Positions 50,980-61,557 are shown, numbered from the stretch's first letter. The stretch is 64,000 bases of DNA from Escherichia coli (GCF_030384885.1 NZ_CP128613.1); one strand, 5' to 3'. A program made the numbers and translations. The notes: a model not told the origin generated them from the letters alone.

Positions 50980-52671
50980 ATGAAAACGCTGCTGATTATT
51001 GACGCTAATCTCGGTCAGGCACGCGCCTATATGGCGAAGACCCTGCTGGGCGCGGCGGCGCGAAAAGCAAAACTGGAAATCATCGACAATCCGAACGACG
51101 CTGAAATGGCGATTGTTCTCGGTGATTCCATCCCGAACGACAGCGCGCTGAACGGTAAAAATGTCTGGCTGGGCGATATTTCCCGGGCAGTTGCGCACCC
51201 TGAGCTGTTCCTGAGTGAAGCCAAAGGCCATGCGAAACCTTACACTGCACCGGTCGCTGCGACAGCACCAGTTGCCACCAGCGGTCCGAAACGCGTAGTT
51301 GCGGTGACAGCTTGCCCGACTGGCGTAGCACACACATTTATGGCGGCTGAAGCCATTGAAACCGAAGCGAAAAAACGTGGCTGGTGGGTGAAAGTTGAAA
51401 CCCGTGGTTCTGTTGGCGCGGGTAATGCGATCACCCCTGAAGAAGTAGCCGCAGCGGATCTGGTGATTGTGGCGGCAGATATCGAAGTGGATCTGGCGAA
51501 ATTTGCTGGTAAACCGATGTATCGCACCTCTACCGGTCTGGCGCTGAAGAAAACCGCGCAGGAACTGGATAAAGCGGTTGCTGAAGCAACGCCGTATGAA
51601 CCGGCGGGCAAAGCTCAAACAGCGACCACTGAAGGTAAGAAAGAGGGTGCAGGCGCTTACCGTCACTTGCTGACGGGCGTCTCTTACATGCTGCCGATGG
51701 TCGTTGCAGGTGGTCTGTGTATCGCGCTTTCTTTTGCTTTTGGTATCGAAGCGTTTAAAGAGCCGGGTACGTTGGCAGCGGCGCTGATGCAGATTGGTGG
51801 TGGTTCAGCCTTTGCGCTGATGGTGCCGGTACTGGCAGGTTACATAGCCTTCTCCATTGCCGATCGTCCGGGTCTCACGCCGGGTCTGATTGGCGGTATG
51901 CTGGCGGTCAGCACCGGTTCTGGCTTCATTGGGGGTATTATTGCGGGCTTCCTGGCTGGTTACATTGCGAAGTTAATCAGTACGCAACTGAAACTGCCAC
52001 AGAGTATGGAGGCGCTGAAACCGATCCTGATCATTCCGCTAATTTCCAGTCTGGTGGTCGGTCTGGCGATGATCTACCTGATCGGTAAACCGGTTGCTGG
52101 CATTCTCGAAGGGTTGACTCACTGGCTGCAGACCATGGGGACTGCGAATGCGGTTCTGCTGGGGGCGATCCTCGGTGGCATGATGTGTACTGACATGGGC
52201 GGTCCGGTAAATAAAGCAGCGTACGCATTCGGTGTGGGTCTGCTGAGTACTCAAACCTATGGCCCGATGGCGGCGATTATGGCGGCAGGTATGGTGCCAC
52301 CGCTGGCAATGGGTCTGGCAACAATGGTGGCGCGTCGCAAATTCGACAAAGCGCAGCAGGAAGGTGGCAAAGCCGCTCTGGTTCTTGGTCTGTGCTTTAT
52401 TTCGGAAGGTGCAATTCCGTTTGCTGCTCGTGATCCGATGCGTGTGCTGCCGTGTTGTATCGTTGGTGGGGCGCTGACTGGCGCAATCTCAATGGCGATT
52501 GGTGCGAAACTGATGGCACCGCACGGTGGTCTGTTTGTTCTGCTGATCCCTGGCGCTATTACGCCGGTACTGGGTTACCTGGTAGCAATTATTGCCGGTA
52601 CGCTGGTGGCGGGTTTGGCCTATGCCTTCCTGAAACGTCCGGAAGTGGACGCAGTAGCGAAAGCAGCGTAA
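50980..52671 (+). CDS. fruA: Fructose PTS EIIB'BC component FruA
   Basis: 563-aa ORF; EIIB Cys motif VTACPTGVAHTFMA; multi-TM EIIC domain. Confidence 0.95.
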   Translation: MKTLLIIDANLGQARAYMAKTLLGAAARKAKLEIIDNPNDAEMAIVLGDSIPNDSALNGKNVWLGDISRAVAHPELFLSEAKGHAKPYTAPVAATAPVATSGPKRVVAVTACPTGVAHTFMAAEAIETEAKKRGWWVKVETRGSVGAGNAITPEEVAAADLVIVAADIEVDLAKFAGKPMYRTSTGLALKKTAQELDKAVAEATPYEPAGKAQTATTEGKKEGAGAYRHLLTGVSYMLPMVVAGGLCIALSFAFGIEAFKEPGTLAAALMQIGGGSAFALMVPVLAGYIAFSIADRPGLTPGLIGGMLAVSTGSGFIGGIIAGFLAGYIAKLISTQLKLPQSMEALKPILIIPLISSLVVGLAMIYLIGKPVAGILEGLTHWLQTMGTANAVLLGAILGGMMCTDMGGPVNKAAYAFGVGLLSTQTYGPMAAIMAAGMVPPLAMGLATMVARRKFDKAQQEGGKAALVLGLCFISEGAIPFAARDPMRVLPCCIVGGALTGAISMAIGAKLMAPHGGLFVLLIPGAITPVLGYLVAIIAGTLVAGLAYAFLKRPEVDAVAKAA

Positions 52672-52826
52672 TAAAAGGTGTGTTACAGGGCAGAAATTTC
52701 CTGCCCTGTAACATTTGATGAGCGCAAAGGGAATGACCAGTTTGTGAATGTAATTTTATGAATTTAAATGGTTTTATCTTTCAGTAGAAACCTGAAATGT
52801 TCATCAAACACTAAGGTTATTTCCTC

Positions 52827-52854
52827 AAGGGCAGATTATTTTCTGCCCTTTTTA
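52827..52854 (+). terminator. Rho-independent terminator after fruA
   Basis: aaGGGCAGattattttCTGCCCttttt; a weaker hairpin also at 52681-52713. Confidence 0.8.
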
Positions 52855-53093
52855 GTGTTCCTGTTCTGTGCATCCCGTCACAAATTCCTCACTTTTGTAA
52901 TTCAGGCATTTAATCGCATTTTGTGAGCCTGCTCAAATCTGCCCATTTTGCCTCTCTGGCGGCAATTTACTTTACGTAAAACATGCATACTATGAGCACA
53001 TGTTTAAATATGAACACATGTTTAAACCGTCTTTGCAGTATCTATATTCTTGTGGATTGACAGGGTTGGTAATTTTTTACCAGAGGACGTGCT

Positions 53094-54035
53094 ATGCGCG
53101 AAAAGGATTATGTCGTAATTATAGGCTCGGCGAATATTGATGTCGCCGGATATTCACATGAATCATTAAATTATGCGGATTCAAATCCAGGTAAAATAAA
53201 ATTTACGCCTGGTGGGGTAGGGCGCAATATTGCACAAAACCTGGCGTTGCTGGGTAATAAAGCCTGGCTACTGAGCGCCGTAGGCAGTGATTTTTATGGT
53301 CAATCGCTGCTAACGCAAACCAATCAATCTGGCGTTTATGTCGATAAATGCCTGATTGTGCCGGGAGAAAATACGTCGAGCTATTTATCATTACTCGATA
53401 ATACCGGTGAAATGCTGGTTGCTATAAATGACATGAATATTAGCAACGCTATTACAGCTGAATATCTCGCACAGCACCGTGAATTTATTCAGAGGGCAAA
53501 GGTCATTGTCGCGGACTGTAATATCAGTGAAGAGGCACTGGCATGGATTCTGGATAATGCCGCCAACGTACCCATATTTGTCGATCCTGTTTCTGCGTGG
53601 AAATGTGTCAAAGTGCGCGACCGTCTAAATCTGATCCACACTCTCAAGCCAAACCGCCTTGAAGCGGAAACCCTGAGTGGGATTGCGCTGTCAGGGCGTG
53701 AAGATGTGGCAAAGGTTGCCGCCTGGTTCCATCAACATGGCCTGAACCGCCTGGTGCTGAGCATGGGCGGTGATGGTGTTTATTACAGTGATATCGGCGG
53801 TGAAAGTGGTTGGTCTGCGCCGATTAAAACCAATGTCATTAATGTTACCGGAGCGGGCGATGCCATGATGGCGGGACTTGCTTCGTGTTGGGTAGACGGA
53901 ATGCCGTTTGCCGAATCTGTTCGTTTCGCACAGGGATGTTCGTCAATGGCGCTCTCCTGTGAATACACCAATAACCCCGATTTATCGATTGCCAACGTTA
54001 TATCGTTAGTGGAGAACGCAGAATGTCTGAATTAA
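53094..54035 (+). CDS. psuK: Pseudouridine kinase PsuK (YeiC), pfkB family
   Basis: 313-aa ORF with TGAGDAMMAG motif; AT-rich coding sequence. Confidence 0.85.
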   Translation: MREKDYVVIIGSANIDVAGYSHESLNYADSNPGKIKFTPGGVGRNIAQNLALLGNKAWLLSAVGSDFYGQSLLTQTNQSGVYVDKCLIVPGENTSSYLSLLDNTGEMLVAINDMNISNAITAEYLAQHREFIQRAKVIVADCNISEEALAWILDNAANVPIFVDPVSAWKCVKVRDRLNLIHTLKPNRLEAETLSGIALSGREDVAKVAAWFHQHGLNRLVLSMGGDGVYYSDIGGESGWSAPIKTNVINVTGAGDAMMAGLASCWVDGMPFAESVRFAQGCSSMALSCEYTNNPDLSIANVISLVENAECLN

Positions 54036-54961
54036 AAATTTCCCCTGAATTATTACAAATTTCCCCGGAAGTGCAGGACGCTTTAAAAAACAAAAAACCG
54101 GTTGTGGCACTGGAATCGACAATTATTTCTCACGGGATGCCATTCCCGCAAAATGCTGAGACGGCAATTGAAGTAGAAGACACAATTCGTAAGCACGGTG
54201 CTGTACCTGCAACAATCGCCATTATTGGTGGTGTCATGAAAGTAGGTTTGAGCAAAGAAGAAATTGAATTGTTAGGCCGTGAAGGACATAACGTGACGAA
54301 AGTCAGTCGCCGTGATTTACCTTTTGTCGTTGCCGCAGGAAAAAATGGCGCGACCACCGTTGCTTCAACGATGATTATCGCGGCACTGGCAGGAATTAAA
54401 GTATTTGCAACGGGGGGGATTGGTGGTGTGCATCGCGGTGCGGAACATACATTCGATATTTCTGCCGATTTACAGGAACTGGCAAATACTAATGTCACCG
54501 TTGTTTGTGCCGGTGCAAAATCTATTCTCGATTTAGGATTAACAACAGAATATTTAGAAACCTTCGGTGTACCGTTAATTGGCTATCAGACAAAAGCGCT
54601 GCCTGCGTTTTTCTGCCGTACCAGCCCATTTGAAGTCAGTATTCGCCTTGATAGTGCCACGGAAATCGCTCGTGCAATGGCAGTGAAATGGCAAACCGGT
54701 TTGAACGGCGGCCTGGTAGTGGCGAATCCGATCCCGGAGCAGTTTGCGATGCCGGAGGAATCTATCAATGCAGCCATAGATCAAGCTGTCGCCGAAGCCG
54801 AAGAGCAGGGCGTTATTGGTAAAGAAAGTACACCGTTCCTGCTGGCTCGTGTTGCTGAACTGACCGGTGGTGACAGCCTGAAATCCAACATCCAACTGGT
54901 GTTCAACAACGCCATTCTGGCGAGCGAAATTGCCAAAGAATACCAGCGTCTCGCGGGTTAA
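54023..54961 (+). CDS. psuG: Pseudouridine-5'-phosphate glycosidase PsuG (YeiN)
   Basis: 312-aa ORF overlapping psuK end by 13 nt. Confidence 0.85.
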   Translation: MSELKISPELLQISPEVQDALKNKKPVVALESTIISHGMPFPQNAETAIEVEDTIRKHGAVPATIAIIGGVMKVGLSKEEIELLGREGHNVTKVSRRDLPFVVAAGKNGATTVASTMIIAALAGIKVFATGGIGGVHRGAEHTFDISADLQELANTNVTVVCAGAKSILDLGLTTEYLETFGVPLIGYQTKALPAFFCRTSPFEVSIRLDSATEIARAMAVKWQTGLNGGLVVANPIPEQFAMPEESINAAIDQAVAEAEEQGVIGKESTPFLLARVAELTGGDSLKSNIQLVFNNAILASEIAKEYQRLAG

Positions 54962-55054
54962 TTTCTGACGGGCAGAAAGCCGTCGCCCGTACTGATCATA
55001 CATACCAAAACCTGGCGCTAACGCCGGGTTTACTGGCATGAAAGGAAAATCATT

Positions 55055-56292
55055 ATGGATATAATGAGAAGTTTGGTGGGTATGGTGGTATTGCTGGCAA
55101 TTGCATTCTTATTGTCAGTGAATAAAAAAGGTATCAGCATACGCACGGTCGGGGCTGCATTGCTGCTGCAAATCGCTATTGGTGGCATTATGCTCTACTT
55201 CCCACCGGGAAAATGGGCAGTAGAGCAGGCGGCATTAGGCGTGCATAAAGTGATGTCTTACAGTGATGCCGGTAGCGCCTTCATTTTTGGTTCGCTGGTT
55301 GGGCCGAAAATGGATGTCCTGTTTGATGGCGCGGGCTTTATCTTCGCCTTTCGCGTACTTCCGGCAATTATTTTCGTCACAGCGCTCATCAGCCTGCTGT
55401 ACTACATTGGCGTGATGGGGCTGCTAATCCGCATTCTTGGCAGTATTTTTCAGAAAGCCCTCAACATCAGCAAAATCGAATCTTTTGTTGCGGTTACCAC
55501 TATTTTCCTCGGGCAAAATGAGATCCCGGCGATCGTTAAACCGTTTATCGATCGCATGAATCGCAACGAGCTATTTACGGCAATTTGTAGCGGGATGGCG
55601 TCCATTGCCGGTTCGATGATGATTGGTTATGCCGGAATGGGCGTACCAATTGACTACCTGTTAGCGGCATCGCTGATGGTATTTTGTTTGCACGTATTCT
55701 TAGCCCAGCCACCGAGCCTTCGCAGGTGACATTTGAAAATCTGTCGTTCAGCGAAACGCCGCCAAAAAGCTTTATCGAAGCGGCGGCGAGCGGTGCGATG
55801 ACCGGGTTGAAAATCGCCGCTGGTGTGGCGACGGTGGTAATGGCGTTTGTGGCAATTATTGCGCTGATCAACGGCATTATCGGCGGAATTGGTGGCTGGT
55901 TTGGTTTTTCCAATGCCTCTCTGGAAAGTATTTTTGGCTATGTGCTGGCACCGCTGGCGTGGATCATGGGCGTGGACTGGAGTGATGCCAACCTTGCGGG
56001 TAGCCTGATTGGGCAGAAACTGGCGATTAACGAATTCGTCGCTTACCTGAGTTTCTCCCCATACCTGCAAACGGGCGGCACGCTGGAAGTGAAAACCATT
56101 GCGATTATCTCCTTTGCGCTTTGTGGTTTTGCTAACTTTGGTTCTATCGGTGTTGTCGTTGGGGCGTTTTCGGCTATTTCGCCAAAACGCGCGCCGGAAA
56201 TCGCTCAGCTTGGGTTACGGGCGTTGGCAGCAGCAACGCTTTCAAACCTGATGAGTGCGACCATTGCCGGGTTCTTTATTGGTTTAGCTTGA
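55055..56292 (+). pseudogene. psuT: Nucleoside (putative pseudouridine) transporter PsuT/YeiM, frameshifted into two ORFs (55055-55729 and 55684-56292)
   Basis: The two ORFs are in different frames and together span 1238 nt versus 1251 nt for intact paralog nupX; by-eye alignment places a 13-nt gap between 55679 and 55680. Confidence 0.7.
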
Positions 56293-56299
56293 GTTTCAT

Positions 56300-56338
56300 T
56301 GCCGGATGTACGCGCTTATTAAGCGTTGCATCCGGCAA
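56300..56338. terminator. REP-like palindromic hairpin between convergent psuT and yeiL
   Basis: tTGCCGGATGtacgcgcttattaagcgttgCATCCGGCAa. Confidence 0.55.
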
Positions 56339-56360
56339 TCGCGCTATTCCAGATTATTTT

Positions 56361-57020
56361 TTACTGCATCATCCCGGAGAATTTATTCTCCGGGTCCATC
56401 TCCAGCGCCAGCCCTAACAACTGCTTTCTGTTTTTAATCAGATACCCTTTCTTGCTTTTAATTAATAAACCGTCATGAATGAATTGCGCGAGAACATATA
56501 AAAGATGTCGATAAGAAACGCCCAAATACTCTGCCGCTTGCGTATGCTTTTCTTGATAAAGATCACCTTCCTGCGAGAGTAATATAAAAGCTGCCAGGCG
56601 ATTCATTAACGGAAATGATTGATTCTGAGTTAAAGAAACAATATTACGATAATTTTTATGACTTAAGGTGACGCAGAGTTTTCGTAAAAATAGCGTATCG
56701 TTTAATAACAGCGGGCGGTAATGTTTCATAGGGAGCGCAAGGCACCAACACTCTTCAATCGCCTGTACCGCTCGTGGTTCATGATCTTTATCGATTAACT
56801 CAATCTCGCCAATAAAACAGGGTGCAGCAAAGAAATCAATCAGCGACACGCGACCATTAGCAAGCGTGGCGTAAAGCCTGGCGCGGCCTCGCGTCAGGTA
56901 AAACAGCCATGACGGCTGTTGCCCTTCCTGCACAATGTAGTCACGCGCTAAAAAATGAAACAGCCGTGTATCGGCTGAAACATCCGTTGAAAAGCAATCC
57001 TTATACGCGGACTCACTCAT
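56361..57020 (-). CDS. yeiL: Crp/Fnr-family transcriptional regulator YeiL (Nsr)
   Basis: 219 aa from ATG at 57018-57020 ([13 protein letters not shown]...); cNMP-binding-like domain and C-terminal HTH. Confidence 0.85.
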
Positions 57021-57188
57021 CAATTGCTGCTTAAGATCATTATTGTGGATTTCTTTCACGATGTTTATCCGCTATGAGATTTCTCATATTTAGCATACGT
57101 ACGCTGTTGTTAAGATTCAATCATCGGCCCGGTCGAATTTTCTTTGCTGTAGAAAAAATAACGCAACTGGAAACAGAGGAAATAAACA

Positions 57189-58130
57189 ATGGAAAAGAGA
57201 AAAATTATTCTGGATTGTGATCCGGGTCATGATGATGCTATTGCCATAATGATGGCCGCGAAACATCCGGTGATTGATTTATTAGGTATCACTATTGTGG
57301 CGGGGAATCAAACCCTCGATAAAACATTAATTAATGGCCTGAATGTTTGCCAGAAACTGGAGATTAATGTTCCGGTTTATGCGGGGATGCCGCAACCCAT
57401 TATGCGTCAACAAATCGTTGCCGATAATATTCACGGTGAAACCGGACTTGATGGCCCGGTATTCGAGCCGCTGACCCGCCAGGCAGAAAGTACCCATGCG
57501 GTGAAATATATCATCGATACCCTGATGGCAAGCGATGGCGATATCACTCTGGTGCCGGTTGGTCCGCTTTCAAATATCGCGGTGGCAATGCGTATGCAGC
57601 CCGCAATCCTGCCGAAAATCCGTGAAATTGTACTGATGGGCGGCGCTTACGGTACTGGCAACTTCACCCCATCTGCCGAGTTCAACATCTTTGCTGACCC
57701 GGAAGCGGCACGTGTGGTGTTCACCTCCGGCGTTCCATTAGTAATGATGGGCCTCGATCTCACCAACCAGACCGTTTGCACCCCGGACGTGATTGCACGA
57801 ATGGAAAGGGCAGGCGGCCCTGCCGGAGAGCTGTTCAGCGACATCATGAACTTCACTCTCAAAACTCAGTTCGAAAACTACGGCCTGGCTGGCGGCCCGG
57901 TGCATGACGCCACCTGTATCGGTTATCTGATTAACCCCGATGGCATTAAAACCCAGGAGATGTACGTCGAAGTGGACGTCAACAGTGGCCCTTGTTACGG
58001 GCGTACCGTCTGCGACGAGCTGGGCGTTCTTGGCAAGCCCGCCAATACCAAAGTCGGCATCACTATTGATACCGACTGGTTCTGGGGATTAGTCGAAGAG
58101 TGCGTGCGCGGCTACATCAAAACCCATTAA
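57189..58130 (+). CDS. rihB: Pyrimidine-specific ribonucleoside hydrolase RihB (YeiK)
   Basis: 313-aa ORF with N-terminal DCDPGHDDA nucleoside hydrolase motif. Confidence 0.9.
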
Positions 58131-58229
58131 GTGTTGATAACAAGCCGGGACAGTATCGCAAGATGCAAGCCTGGCTATTTCTGATGGGCAGAAAGCCGTC
58201 GCCCAAAATGACATGAAGAGATAATAACT

Positions 58230-59480
58230 ATGGATGTCATGAGAAGTGTTCTGGGAATGGTGGTACTGCTGGCAATTGCGTTTTTGCTGTCAGTAAACAA
58301 GAAGAAGATCAGCCTGCGTACCGTTGGCGCGGCGTTAGTGTTACAGGTCGTGATTGGCGGCATTATGCTTTGGTTACCGCCAGGGCGTTGGGTCGCAGAA
58401 AAAGTCGCTTTTGGCGTGCATAAAGTGATGGCGTACAGCGACGCAGGTAGCGCATTTATCTTCGGTTCTCTGGTTGGACCGAAAATGGACACCTTATTTG
58501 ATGGCGCAGGATTTATCTTTGGTTTCAGGGTATTACCGGCAATTATCTTCGTTACAGCACTGGTGAGTATTCTCTACTACATCGGTGTGATGGGGATCTT
58601 AATTCGCATTCTCGGCGGTATATTCCAGAAAGCGTTAAATATCAGCAAGATCGAGTCATTCGTCGCGGTCACTACCATTTTCCTCGGGCAAAACGAAATT
58701 CCGGCAATCGTCAAACCCTTTATCGATCGTCTGAATCGCAATGAATTATTTACAGCGATTTGTAGCGGGATGGCCTCGATTGCTGGTTCGACAATGATTG
58801 GTTACGCCGCACTGGGCGTGCCTGTGGAATATCTGCTGGCGGCATCGTTAATGGCTATCCCTGGCGGGATCTTGTTTGCCCGCATGTTAAGTCCGGCTAC
58901 GGAATCTTCGCAGGTTTCCTTTAATAACCTCTCTTTCACCGAAACACCGCCAAAAAGCATTATTGAAGCCGCTGCTACAGGGGCAATGACCGGGCTGAAA
59001 ATCGCTGCAGGTGTGGCGACAGTGGTGATGGCATTTGTCGCCATCATTGCGTTGATCAACGGTGTTATCGGCGGCGTTGGTGGCTGGTTTGGTTTTGAAC
59101 ATGCCTCGCTGGAGTCCATTTTAGGTTACCTGCTGGCCCCGCTGGCGTGGGTGATGGGGGTTGACTGGAGTGATGCGAATCTTGCCGGGAGTTTGATTGG
59201 ACAGAAACTGGCGATTAATGAATTTGTCGCTTACCTCAATTTCTCACCTTATCTGCAAACAGCTGGCACTCTGGATGCTAAAACCGTGGCGATTATTTCC
59301 TTCGCGTTGTGCGGATTCGCTAACTTTGGTTCTATCGGGGTGGTGGTTGGCGCATTTTCTGCGGTTGCGCCACACCGTGCGCCGGAAATCGCCCAGCTTG
59401 GTTTACGCGCGCTGGCGGCGGCGACACTTTCTAACCTGATGAGTGCCACCATTGCAGGATTCTTTATTGGCTTAGCGTAG
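58230..59480 (+). CDS. nupX: Nucleoside permease NupX (YeiJ), CNT family
   Basis: 416-aa intact ORF; close paralog of the psuT reading frames. Confidence 0.9.
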   Translation: MDVMRSVLGMVVLLAIAFLLSVNKKKISLRTVGAALVLQVVIGGIMLWLPPGRWVAEKVAFGVHKVMAYSDAGSAFIFGSLVGPKMDTLFDGAGFIFGFRVLPAIIFVTALVSILYYIGVMGILIRILGGIFQKALNISKIESFVAVTTIFLGQNEIPAIVKPFIDRLNRNELFTAICSGMASIAGSTMIGYAALGVPVEYLLAASLMAIPGGILFARMLSPATESSQVSFNNLSFTETPPKSIIEAAATGAMTGLKIAAGVATVVMAFVAIIALINGVIGGVGGWFGFEHASLESILGYLLAPLAWVMGVDWSDANLAGSLIGQKLAINEFVAYLNFSPYLQTAGTLDAKTVAIISFALCGFANFGSIGVVVGAFSAVAPHRAPEIAQLGLRALAAATLSNLMSATIAGFFIGLA

Positions 59481-59496
59481 TGCGCGAGTTATGAGC

Positions 59497-59530
59497 CGGA
59501 TAAGACGCGGTCAAGCGTCGAATCCGGCAA
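59497..59530. terminator. REP-like palindromic hairpin between convergent nupX and yeiI
   Basis: GCCGGATaagacgcggtcaagcgtcgaATCCGGC. Confidence 0.5.
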
Positions 59531-59535
59531 GATTG

Positions 59536-60624
59536 TTACACCATCGGCACTAATGAAAGCGCGTTATCGGCAGACAGGGTAGGGTTGTTTAAGCTGCCGC
59601 TGGCGCGTGAAATTGCCGCGCAGGCCATCGCAAAACGGGCACTATCACGGAAACTGCTTCCTTCCAGAAAGCTATACACCAGGCCCGCCATAAAACCATC
59701 GTCAGCACCAAAACTGTCTACCGTCGTATGCGCTGGCGCAGTCAGCAAAAATTGTTCGCCATCCTTTTGGCTGCAATAAACAGACTCATCGGGCAAATAA
59801 ACAAACAGTTGCTGAACGCCTTGCTGATGCAACGCATTCACTGCGGCATTACGATCAGCATCGCGGGTTATCGGCTGGCCCCATAAAATTTCCAGCTCCG
59901 GCAAAGTGGGTTTCAGAGTGTGAATATGCGCCAGCCAGTGTTTGATTTTGCCCGCTTTGAATTCTGAAACGGTATCGACAAACACCGGGATTTCATCAGC
60001 GAGGGTAAAGACCCACTCCAGCGCCTCGGCTGTCAGGTTGCAATCAGCCAGTACCACGCCCGCATGACGAAGTAAATCGCGCGACCCGTTCAGTAGTTGC
60101 GGTGTCAACTGATCCAGCAGATGGGTATCGTTAATCGCCAGCACGGTTTGATCGTCTCGATTGGCAATTGCCAGATACGTCGATGTGCTTTGACCATGTA
60201 AACGAACGCAGCCGGAGACATTCACGCCGGCGCGGCGCGTTTCTTCCAGGAGCATTTCGCCATAAAAGTCATCGCCAATCACTGAAAGCAAATGGACGTC
60301 GCGGCCTAACAGCGCCAGATTGTGGGCGATATTGCGTCCAACGCCGCCTGCCGAGCAATGAATTGTACCGGGATGAGAAGCCGCTTGCGGGTAACGGATA
60401 TCCGCCATCCCGCGAATATCCATATTGATTGTCCCCACCACTACGCAGTATTCCTGCTCGGTGAGAATGTAACCTTTGCCTTTAATCCGACCTTTGCGCA
60501 TTAAATCCATAATATGCGCTGCAACACGCGAACGGCTGATTTGCAGCATATCCGCAATTTCGTTCTGCTGAATCAGCGGGTTACGCCTTAATATTGCAAG
60601 GATCTCCTTCTCCCGGTTATTCAT
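59536..60624 (-). CDS. yeiI: Putative sugar/nucleoside kinase with N-terminal HTH domain YeiI
   Basis: 362-aa ORF; N-terminal HTH (EILAILRRNPLIQQNEIADMLQISRSRV) fused to a pfkB-type kinase domain. Confidence 0.85.
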   Translation of the reverse strand: MNNREKEILAILRRNPLIQQNEIADMLQISRSRVAAHIMDLMRKGRIKGKGYILTEQEYCVVVGTINMDIRGMADIRYPQAASHPGTIHCSAGGVGRNIAHNLALLGRDVHLLSVIGDDFYGEMLLEETRRAGVNVSGCVRLHGQSTSTYLAIANRDDQTVLAINDTHLLDQLTPQLLNGSRDLLRHAGVVLADCNLTAEALEWVFTLADEIPVFVDTVSEFKAGKIKHWLAHIHTLKPTLPELEILWGQPITRDADRNAAVNALHQQGVQQLFVYLPDESVYCSQKDGEQFLLTAPAHTTVDSFGADDGFMAGLVYSFLEGSSFRDSARFAMACAAISRASGSLNNPTLSADNALSLVPMV

Positions 60625-60626
60625 CT

Positions 60627-61484
60627 TCAGGCTACCGCTTTTTCAGTTTGTTGCGCTTTCAGCCAGGCGATCTCTTCTGCCCAGATATCCGGGTTGATGG
60701 TTTCAAGGATCAGCGGAATGCCGTCGAAACGGTCGTCCTGCATGATCCAGCGGAACGCATCATGACCGATATTGCCTTCACCGAGGCTATGATGGCGGTC
60801 AACGCGGCTGCCAAAGGTGCTTTTCGCATCGTTAAGGTGCATCCCGCGCAGATACTTAAAGCCGACAATACGGGCAAAATCCGCGAACGTTTTCTCGCAT
60901 TCGGCAGGAGTACGCAAATCATACCCGGCAGCAAAAGCATGGCAGGTATCAATGCAGACGCCGACGCGGGATTTATCTTCCACGCCGTCGATAATCGCCG
61001 CGAGATGTTCGAATTTAAACCCTAAATTGCTGCCCTGACCGGCGGTGTTTTCAATCACCGCTGTCACACCTTGAGTTTTATCCAGCGCAATGTTGATGGA
61101 TTCGGCAATACGCGCAAGGCAATCCTCTTCTGAAATCTGCATCAGATGGCTGCCAGGGTGGAAGTTGAGCAAAGAAAGCCCCAGCTGTTCGCAACGCTGC
61201 ATTTCATCTATAAACGCATCGCGCGATTTTTCCAGAGCTTCAGCGACCGGATGTCCGAGGTTAATCAGATAACTGTCGTGGGGAAGAATTTGCGCCGATG
61301 TGTAGTGATATTTTTCACAGGCGGCTTTGAATTCATCGATGGTTTGCGTCGTGAGCGGTGCGGCACGCCACTGACGTTGGTTTTTGGTGAACAAGGCAAA
61401 CGCGGTTGCGTCGATTTCGGCGGCGCGAATTGCGGCATTTGCCAGACCGCCAGCAGCACTAACGTGCGCTCCAATGTATTTCAT
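60627..61484 (-). CDS. nfo: Endonuclease IV (AP endonuclease)
   Basis: 285-aa [42 protein letters not shown]... Confidence 0.95.
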
Positions 61485-61557
61485 GCGAGGACTCCTGTTA
61501 AACCCGCTGGAGGAAAACGGTAATGATAGCGGGTTAACAGGAGCAAGATGTAGTGGT

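Follow-up and report, generated by a model that had tools for sequence, protein, structure and literature searches.

YeiI as a predicted pseudouridine-responsive repressor of the psuKGT operon in Escherichia coli

Genes and features of the psuK-yeiI region

We analysed a 64,000-nucleotide stretch of an Escherichia coli chromosome (GCF_030384885.1, NZ_CP128613.1; hereafter the window) and focus here on the nucleoside genes at positions 53,094 to 60,624, in particular on yeiI, whose product is predicted to regulate the pseudouridine operon psuKGT. The interval follows fruBKA and contains psuK, psuG and psuT, which converge on yeiL; yeiL diverges from rihB and nupX, and nupX converges on yeiI, behind which lie nfo and yeiH. 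This is the already known E. coli psuKGT–yeiL–rihB–nupX–yeiI region, found in 5,425 of 5,426 complete E. coli genomes. Between it and its nearest match, in strain 2013C-4282, there are a single substitution and a single 13-bp indel across 7,531 bp. The assignment of YeiI as a regulator is new and testable. For comparison, loci were collected with a YeiI profile scan, one genome per species, which gave 80 loci whose neighbouring genes were mapped by tblastn.

All gene assignments are backed by Pfam and NCBIfam. The gene content and coordinates of the original prediction, an earlier note made from the sequence alone, agree with the open reading frames, Pfam, NCBIfam and the RefSeq annotation. 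On the + strand, psuK (53094-54035) encodes a pseudouridine kinase of the PfkB type (NCBIfam NF007355, 710 bits) that lacks a helix-turn-helix (HTH) domain and has the GAGD motif and all contact residues of the structurally characterized enzyme EcPUKI. It is followed by psuG (54023-54961), encoding pseudouridine-5'-phosphate glycosidase (PF04227, E = 6e-133; RefSeq annotation), and by psuT (55055-56292), encoding a CNT transporter and present in the window as a pseudogene with a 13-bp deletion at 55677. On the - strand, yeiL (56361-57059) encodes a CRP/FNR-family regulator (NF007707, 416 bits) with both domains typical of that family, a cNMP_binding domain (PF00027) and a C-terminal Crp-type HTH (HTH_Crp_2, PF13545). 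The + strand genes rihB (57189-58130; NF007417, 725 bits; PF01156) and nupX (58230-59480) encode a pyrimidine ribonucleoside hydrolase and a CNT transporter paralogous to PsuT. Finally, yeiI (59536-60624, - strand) encodes a protein with HTH_24 and PfkB domains (Pfam), the predicted pseudouridine-sensing regulator of psuKGT.

Gene order places yeiI with the psu operon

In 22 of the 29 Enterobacteriaceae loci, fruA-psuK-psuG-psuT runs directly into yeiI-nfo-yeiH-yeiE on the opposite strand, so that psuT and yeiI are convergent neighbours and yeiL-rihB-nupX is missing. Such loci include those of Citrobacter, Enterobacter, Klebsiella michiganensis, K. spallanzanii, Leclercia, Kosakonia, Buttiauxella, Pseudocitrobacter and Escherichia albertii. 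Since yeiI lies next to psuT where the other three genes are absent, yeiI belongs to the psu operon and not to rihB-nupX. On its other side, the start codon of yeiI lies 2 nucleotides past the nfo stop codon (window 60624-60627; 0 nucleotides in Phytobacter and Yokenella). The nfo-yeiI adjacency is kept in all Enterobacteriaceae loci, and yeiI is therefore probably co-transcribed with this endonuclease IV gene.

Within E. coli the locus is mosaic. The yeiI allele is only 80-90% identical to that of the window at the nucleotide level in 2,012 genomes and 60-80% identical in a further 48; the nfo gene alongside has an identity of 95% or more in every case. In strain IAI1, yeiI is 81% identical to the window allele, falling to 64% in the middle of the gene; psuG and psuT of the two strains are 90% and 88% identical.

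A conserved dual operator at the psuK promoter

The region upstream of psuK contains several conserved elements. A CRP-like site, TGTGAGCCTGCTCAAA (52922-52937, + strand), assigned by consensus match only, forms a TGTGA-N6-TCAnA block conserved in 22 aligned Enterobacteriaceae psuK upstream regions and centred at about -70.5 from the inferred transcription start; the Citrobacter and Enterobacter version reads TGTGATTCTGTTCATA. The site suggests that pseudouridine catabolism may be under catabolite control. The psuK promoter (52966-52993, + strand) consists of a -35 element TTTACT (52966-52971), a 16-nucleotide spacer and a -10 element TACTAT (52988-52993). Both elements are conserved, as TTTAC(T/A) and TAnnAT, throughout the Enterobacteriaceae and in Morganella. 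A single-nucleotide polymorphism at intergenic(-126/+297) of psuK was fixed repeatedly, in three populations, in stationary-phase cultures kept for 1,200 days (PMC7858067). Its position, -126 from psuK, maps to window position 52968 and converts TTTACT to TTGACT, a T-to-G promoter-up change. This recurrent mutation independently supports the promoter assignment. In the same experiment nupX gained repeated A375P changes (PMC7858067), and the psu and rihB-nupX modules appear to be under selection during starvation.

Just 3' of the -10 element lies a dual operator (52995-53022, + strand), the predicted YeiI site. Its box 1, AGCACATGTT (52995-53004), and box 2, AACACATGTT (53013-53022), are both of the form AACA-N2-TGTT and are 18 bp apart; the spacing is 19 bp in Neisseriales and Shewanella. 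A scan of 1.55 Mb returned 75 box pairs, against 0-4 in each of 20 composition-preserving shuffles. Such a pair is found at most 260 nucleotides upstream of the lead kinase gene of the psu operon in 27 of 28 Enterobacteriaceae loci, where that gene is an HTH-less psuK, and in 29 of 39 loci elsewhere, where it is an HTH-psuK. The dual box thus marks the psu promoter in 56 of the 67 psuG-linked loci, all of them retrieved through their HTH-PfkB gene. Conversely, no dual box was found upstream of yeiI (0/29), rihB (0/6), yeiL (0/6) or the transporter genes (0/34). The boxes overlap the transcription start, which indicates repression.

Cra, CytR and PurR were considered as owners of the boxes and set aside: their consensus sequences, as generally known, do not match, and the boxes accompany HTH-PfkB genes even where no fru operon adjoins, as in Shewanella and Neisseriales.

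Closer to the gene, a small stem-loop, TGGTA-ATTTTT-TACCA (53067-53082, + strand), abuts the psuK Shine-Dalgarno sequence. In an RNAalifold analysis of 18 genera all 6 pairs show at least one compensatory double change, at a weak folding energy of -4.07 kcal/mol. The element possibly serves translational control or mRNA stabilisation.

YeiI is the HTH-bearing paralogue of pseudouridine kinase

YeiI consists of an N-terminal winged HTH (PF13412 HTH_24, E = 1.2e-10, residues 1-48) and a PfkB domain (PF00294, E = 1.3e-67, residues 58-348). Its best match in the PDB is EcPUKI, the E. coli PsuK (PDB 7VKP; E = 2e-66, residues 55-359; PMC9061257), with which it shares the PfkB fold and to which it adds a 54-residue winged HTH covered by no solved structure. 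The fusion of a PfkB kinase to an HTH had first been taken for an unusual architecture. It is in fact the majority form of this kinase family, the HTH being present in 110 of 143 sequences compared (141 representatives of 50%-identity clusters plus E. coli YeiI and PsuK). Outside the Enterobacteriaceae a single HTH-kinase gene immediately precedes psuG, and a CNT gene usually comes next. We observed this order in Serratia, Yersinia, Hafnia, Photorhabdus, Xenorhabdus, Morganella, Gilliamella, Pasteurellaceae and Neisseriales, as well as in Shewanella, with the same boxes, and in a Ruminococcaceae metagenome-assembled genome. In the Enterobacteriaceae, PsuK lacks the HTH, the psuK promoter keeps the operator and YeiI is the only paralogue that bears an HTH.

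The HTH-PsuK proteins that lead psuG(-psuT) operons in Yersiniaceae, Hafniaceae, Morganellaceae, Pasteurellaceae, Neisseriales and Shewanella have the two-domain architecture of YeiI, with HTHs 62-72% identical to its own, and their psu promoters carry the same dual operator as E. coli psuK. They differ from YeiI in being encoded first in the operon and in having the canonical GAGD motif, and are presumably enzyme and regulator at once; YeiI is unlinked from the promoter, convergently encoded and has GADD. The HTH is also the better conserved part of YeiI, at 93% versus 79% for the kinase domain within the YeiI clade and 72% versus 48% in comparison with HTH-PsuK of Yersiniaceae and Hafnia. 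The recognition helix ISRSRVA-HIM is identical even in P0103, a relative only 42% identical to YeiI, and the HTH helix and GADD are retained in all three classes of yeiI allele in E. coli.

We then compared YeiI with EcPUKI residue by residue. The equivalents of Asn14, Asp16, Ser30, Tyr97, Asn112, Asn143 and Lys170, which make the ribose and base contacts, and of Lys185 and Asp256 are all present in YeiI and kept in 28 of 28 YeiI orthologues. Among them are Ser/Thr30, Asn143 and Lys170, the hallmark residues by which pseudouridine kinases read the base (PMC9061257). Two positions depart from EcPUKI, again in all 28 orthologues: GADD replaces GAGD, and Thr replaces Met114. GAGD and M114 are found in 53/53 HTH-PsuK proteins and in 26/27 tabulated HTH-less PsuK proteins, the 27th having been mis-flagged. 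The G-x-G-D anion-hole motif, absent from YeiI, is present in all 32 HTH-less relatives. Catalytic motifs that have degenerated (GAAS, GASS, GIDN and others) were seen in 18 cluster representatives with an HTH and in 0/32 without one. One of the 18 is P0103, which has GIDN and has lost the catalytic Asp, Lys185 and Asn14; its gene is convergent to an HTH-less psuK-psuG-CNT operon with a dual box at the promoter.

These substitutions bear on whether YeiI is an enzyme. YeiI may be bifunctional, acting as a weak or conditionally expressed pseudouridine kinase and as a repressor, like the single HTH-PsuK elsewhere. Such a role would fit the conservation of all substrate and catalytic side chains except the anion-hole Gly, and a machine-learning predictor assigns YeiI EC 2.7.1.83. 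However, the NCBIfam PsuK model scores YeiI at 254.7 bits, under its cut-off of 540, the G-to-D change at the third motif position is found in no HTH-less family member, and the kinase domain evolves faster than the HTH. Furthermore, in the account given by PMC12506659, citing Preumont 2008, a psuK mutant cannot grow on pseudouridine, yeiI notwithstanding; on that account YeiI does not substitute for PsuK in vivo and is not a redundant kinase. We therefore consider bifunctionality unlikely.

Alternatively, YeiI could be an active kinase that acts on another nucleoside, possibly a modified one, with an HTH directed at some other target and with a factor other than YeiI binding the psuK operator. 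The retained catalytic Asp and Lys185, the M114T change in the base pocket and the deep allelic divergence of the kinase domain within E. coli would all suit such an enzyme. They have to be set against the base-reading residues Ser30, Asn143 and Lys170, invariant in every orthologue, and against the catalytic losses of the YeiI-like P0103. The surroundings of yeiI also argue otherwise: its conserved neighbours are nfo and the psu (or nupX) transporter gene, it forms no operon with a glycosidase or hydrolase gene, it has no dual box of its own, and the same operator goes with HTH-PsuK in three orders. Taken together, these observations make a kinase for another nucleoside quite improbable.

A second, stand-alone HTH-PfkB paralogue was seen in twelve Xenorhabdus loci, with no psuG neighbour detected on the contigs, several of which are short. 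Tyr97 is replaced by Cys in most of these proteins, and some of the genes have dual-box-like sites 300-470 nucleotides upstream.

A repressor model for YeiI

Gene orders, phylogeny and the conservation of motifs and residues are direct observations. From this comparative evidence we infer that YeiI is a trans-acting, pseudouridine-responsive repressor of psuKGT, its DNA binding, repression, inducer and catalytic status all being predicted. The explanation that we favour, with a probability of roughly 0.62, is that the region comprises two self-contained nucleoside modules and that YeiI is the pseudouridine-responsive psuKGT repressor that binds the dual operator.

In the first module, psuK-psuG-psuT would be transcribed from a CRP-type promoter whose start region holds the two AACA-N2-TGTT boxes 18 bp apart, with yeiI downstream and convergent, right behind nfo. 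In most Proteobacteria sampled, HTH-PsuK would be both the kinase and an autoregulator acting on these boxes. The simplest reading is a gene duplication after which PsuK would have dropped the HTH and stayed an enzyme, and YeiI would have kept the HTH and the pseudouridine pocket as its anion-hole motif changed from GAGD to GADD. A YeiI dimer on each box would block RNA polymerase. Binding of pseudouridine or its 5'-phosphate in the PfkB pocket would cause an inter-subunit closure as in EcPUKI, and closure would misalign the N-terminal HTHs and release the DNA. In EcPUKI, pseudouridine induces a large closure between the subunits, with Ser30 as the trigger (PMC9061257), a movement that offers a ready allosteric link between the ligand and the N-terminal HTHs.

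Kinase-derived repressors and trigger enzymes have precedents in NagC and Mlc versus NagK and Glk of the ROK family and in BirA, NadR and PutA. In such systems a sugar or nucleoside kinase fold with an N-terminal HTH can serve as the ligand sensor of the repressor of its cognate catabolic operon, and paralogues divide the roles of enzyme and regulator. Unlike the ROK-family repressors, YeiI has a ribokinase-like PfkB fold and not a ROK/ASKHA fold, and the likeness is drawn from general knowledge.

Several points weigh against the repressor model. In neighbour-joining trees (Kimura distances, root position uncertain), monophyly is found in 200/200 bootstraps for YeiI and likewise for Enterobacteriaceae PsuK, but YeiI is not the sister of Enterobacteriaceae PsuK in the kinase-domain tree (0/200); the duplication may therefore predate the family, or YeiI may have been acquired. 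YeiI keeps the catalytic Asp and Lys185 and so may still phosphorylate something. The box evidence has limits as well: 10 of the 39 loci outside the Enterobacteriaceae fall below the box threshold, the box consensus was drawn by eye from the same sequences before the scan, and the shuffles control for chance and not for another factor that binds the boxes. Moreover, all 80 loci were fetched by similarity to YeiI, a sample that leaves out genomes with psuK but no YeiI. The function of YeiI is given as unknown in PMC9061257 and PMC12506659. In the literature searched, we found neither a paper assigning YeiI a function nor a described regulator of pseudouridine catabolism.

yeiL-rihB-nupX is a portable module with a candidate YeiL box

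The genes that separate psuT from yeiI in the window form a module present in 6 of the 29 Enterobacteriaceae loci and, in addition, in Yokenella, a second Phytobacter ursingii strain and E. coli IAI1. Among the Enterobacteriaceae it is confined to Escherichia, Citrobacter amalonaticus (one of two), Phytobacter diazotrophicus, P. ursingii (one of two), Entomohabitans and Yokenella, and its presence varies between strains of C. amalonaticus and of P. ursingii. Hafnia alvei has yeiL divergent from rihB and a CNT gene at a locus unrelated to its psu operon. The transporter of that copy shares 85-89% identity with the Enterobacteriaceae NupX and PsuT proteins compared but only 71% with Hafnia's own psu-linked transporter, of which it is never the sister in bootstrap trees. 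The absence of the module from most loci and its occurrence at an unrelated site in Hafnia identify yeiL and the divergent rihB(-transporter) as an autonomous, transferable insert.

The divergent region between yeiL and rihB contains the palindrome TATGAGATTTCTCATA (57073-57088; RTGAG-N4-CTCAT), which has no other exact match in the window. Every Enterobacterales module carries it unchanged (Escherichia, Citrobacter, Phytobacter, Entomohabitans, Yokenella and the relocated copy of Hafnia), and the corresponding yeiL-rihB site of Enterococcus reads GTGAGAATTCTCAT. Its 5-N4-5 geometry suits a CRP/FNR protein, which makes it a candidate YeiL box. YeiL has the cNMP_binding and HTH_Crp_2 domains of the CRP/FNR regulators, and ATGAG-N4-CTCAT resembles the FNR site TTGAT-N4-ATCAA in geometry but differs in half-site sequence. 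No description of this palindrome was found in the literature searched.

In Enterococcus, including Enterococcus malodoratus, a YeiL homologue 58-60% identical to YeiL is divergent from an IU-nucleoside hydrolase gene, which is followed by genes for a PfkB kinase and a Bmp/ABC transporter. These homologues imply cross-phylum transfer of the regulator-hydrolase pair.

The second module of our model would be a unit for the hydrolysis and uptake of pyrimidine nucleosides that has a CRP/FNR-type regulator and a conserved palindrome of its own and lies between psuT and yeiI in some lineages only; its nupX would derive from a duplicated Enterobacteriaceae psuT. NupX carries uridine and cytidine weakly, and no uptake of uridine, cytidine or xanthosine was seen for PsuT (PMC11241209); this pattern fits a role of rihB-nupX in pyrimidine-nucleoside salvage.

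The transporter gene, and not a whole cassette, was duplicated

The original prediction read the region as two mirror-image paralogous cassettes that arose by one old segmental duplication around yeiL, with hairpins of the repetitive extragenic palindromic (REP) type as relics. The similarity of the transporters on which it drew is confirmed: NupX and the intact PsuT of the nearest relative are identical at 364 of 416 residues (87.5%) without gaps, and the genes are 78.5% identical in nucleotide sequence, or 0.88, 0.95 and 0.52 at codon positions 1, 2 and 3. The third-position value is similar to those between E. coli psuT and the psuT genes of Citrobacter, Klebsiella or Leclercia (0.51-0.55) and above those between E. 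coli and Serratia or Yersinia (0.41-0.43). Enterobacteriaceae PsuT and NupX form one clade (200/200 bootstraps) that excludes the psu transporters of Yersinia, Serratia, Hafnia, Morganella and Xenorhabdus, and no bootstrap tree (0/200) pairs E. coli PsuT and NupX as sisters. Clade support and third-position identity therefore indicate that a single gene, psuT, underwent duplication around the time when the core Enterobacteriaceae genera diverged, and the copy became attached to yeiL-rihB as nupX. A weakness of this history is that the NupX clade, including the Hafnia module copy, has only moderate support (133/200).

The part of the original prediction that extended this duplication to whole cassettes did not stand. 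psuKGT and rihB-nupX all lie on the + strand, and the transporter genes are therefore direct repeats, 3.2 kb apart; only the two kinase genes are inverted, so the arrangement is not a mirror. Nor are the cassettes paralogous as units. The kinase part of YeiI is homologous to PsuK, but their identity is 39% (120/305), against 87.5% for the transporters, so that the kinase pair is far older or faster-evolving than the transporter pair. PsuG (PF04227, Indigoidine_A fold) and RihB (PF01156, IU-nucleoside hydrolase fold) are unrelated. A segmental duplication should leave at least two collinear gene pairs of comparable divergence, and only the transporters make such a pair. The 3' flanks of both transporter genes do align past the hairpin core in some E. 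coli strains and in Phytobacter, as relics would. Against this stand the gene order of 22 genomes, in which yeiI adjoins psuT wherever the module is absent, and the module alone in Hafnia. The cassettes thus occur independently of each other, an outcome that tells against the original prediction on its own terms, and we regard a single mirror duplication as hardly credible.

Two other histories of the transporter genes were examined and rejected. Recent gene conversion between psuT and nupX is ruled out by the even identity along the gene (69-85% per 100 nucleotides) and the lack of a conversion tract. The E. albertii gene is not a psuT/nupX recombinant left by a deletion: it is psuT-like over its full length (169 psuT-type versus 59 nupX-type informative sites) with no 3' switch, its likeness to nupX being confined to the stop codon and spacer.

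Both transporters match TIGR00804 and the three Pfam CNT domains and fall in the NupX/PsuT/vcCNT subgroup of the CNT (NupC) family (PMC11241209). Nucleos_tra2_N, Gate and Nucleos_tra2_C lie in one intact open reading frame in nupX and in psuT of the nearest relative, but psuT of the window is frameshifted. Relative to NZ_CP027579 it has lost the 13 bp TGGCGATCCCTGG at 55677, flanked by TGG microhomology, which splits the gene into open reading frames 55055-55729 and 55684-56292. The deletion is absent from all 5,426 complete E. coli genomes and could be an assembly error in the source genome.

Terminator-like hairpins between the convergent genes

Both hairpins named in the original prediction exist, at 56301-56336 and 59495-59528. 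One (as a feature, 56300-56338) lies between the convergent psuT and yeiL and is a probable bidirectional terminator; the other (59495-59529) lies between the convergent nupX and yeiI. They are the only two matches to GCCGGAT..ATCCGGC in the 64 kb (0.01 expected) and fold at -28.3 kcal/mol (z about -5.4) on the psuT side and -23.7 kcal/mol (z about -5.6) on the nupX side. An Rfam scan of 52500-61500 (E ≤ 1) gave one chance sub-threshold match only, and none for the hairpins.

The two hairpins share with REP elements the imperfect GCCGGAT...ATCCGGC palindrome and the location between convergent genes. Typical REPs are flanked by a GTAG/CTAC tetranucleotide, which serves RAYT recognition. The window hairpins differ in being single copies, with the tetranucleotide absent beside both; in strain SCPM-O-B-8794 the hairpin does have a GTAG/CTAC flank, CGTAGGCCGGATAAG. 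A GC-rich hairpin lies between the transporter gene and its convergent neighbour in every genus, with differing sequence, and is of the REP type only in Escherichia and the C. freundii group. In other genera these positions are occupied by unrelated GC-rich hairpins; what is conserved is thus a terminator-like hairpin and not a REP.

The hairpins do not testify to a duplication. In a scoring that included the two window flanks and 28 REP-type hairpins taken from the fetched loci, the flanks resembled each other no more than is ordinary for REPs (rank 9 of 28). In other strains the flanks of psuT and nupX are closer to each other than in the window, and the psuT-yeiI spacer of E. albertii is nearly identical to the nupX-yeiI hairpin of the window.

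Implications for pseudouridine catabolism and the PfkB family

The neighbourhood of psuKGT is redrawn by this analysis, with yeiL-rihB-nupX as a portable three-gene module that has its own candidate operator. If the proposed role of YeiI is true, the y-gene yeiI would gain a function and the psu operon its missing regulator. The hypothesis is concrete: it specifies the protein, an operator of 28 bp, a likely inducer and a G-to-D substitution as a diagnostic mark. It would also account for the mis-assignment of YeiI, by machine-learning tools, as a pseudouridine kinase, and it bears on strains engineered to produce pseudouridine for mRNA therapeutics, in which the psu genes are already manipulated.

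For the family as a whole, we think the chances somewhat better than even that HTH-PfkB PUKI proteins are a widespread class of pseudouridine-responsive repressors, originally bifunctional on the dual operator, that decayed to ligand-sensing pseudokinases in several lineages and split into PsuK and YeiI in the Enterobacteriaceae. The PsuK/YeiI pair would then offer a clean example of the separation of enzyme and regulator after gene duplication.

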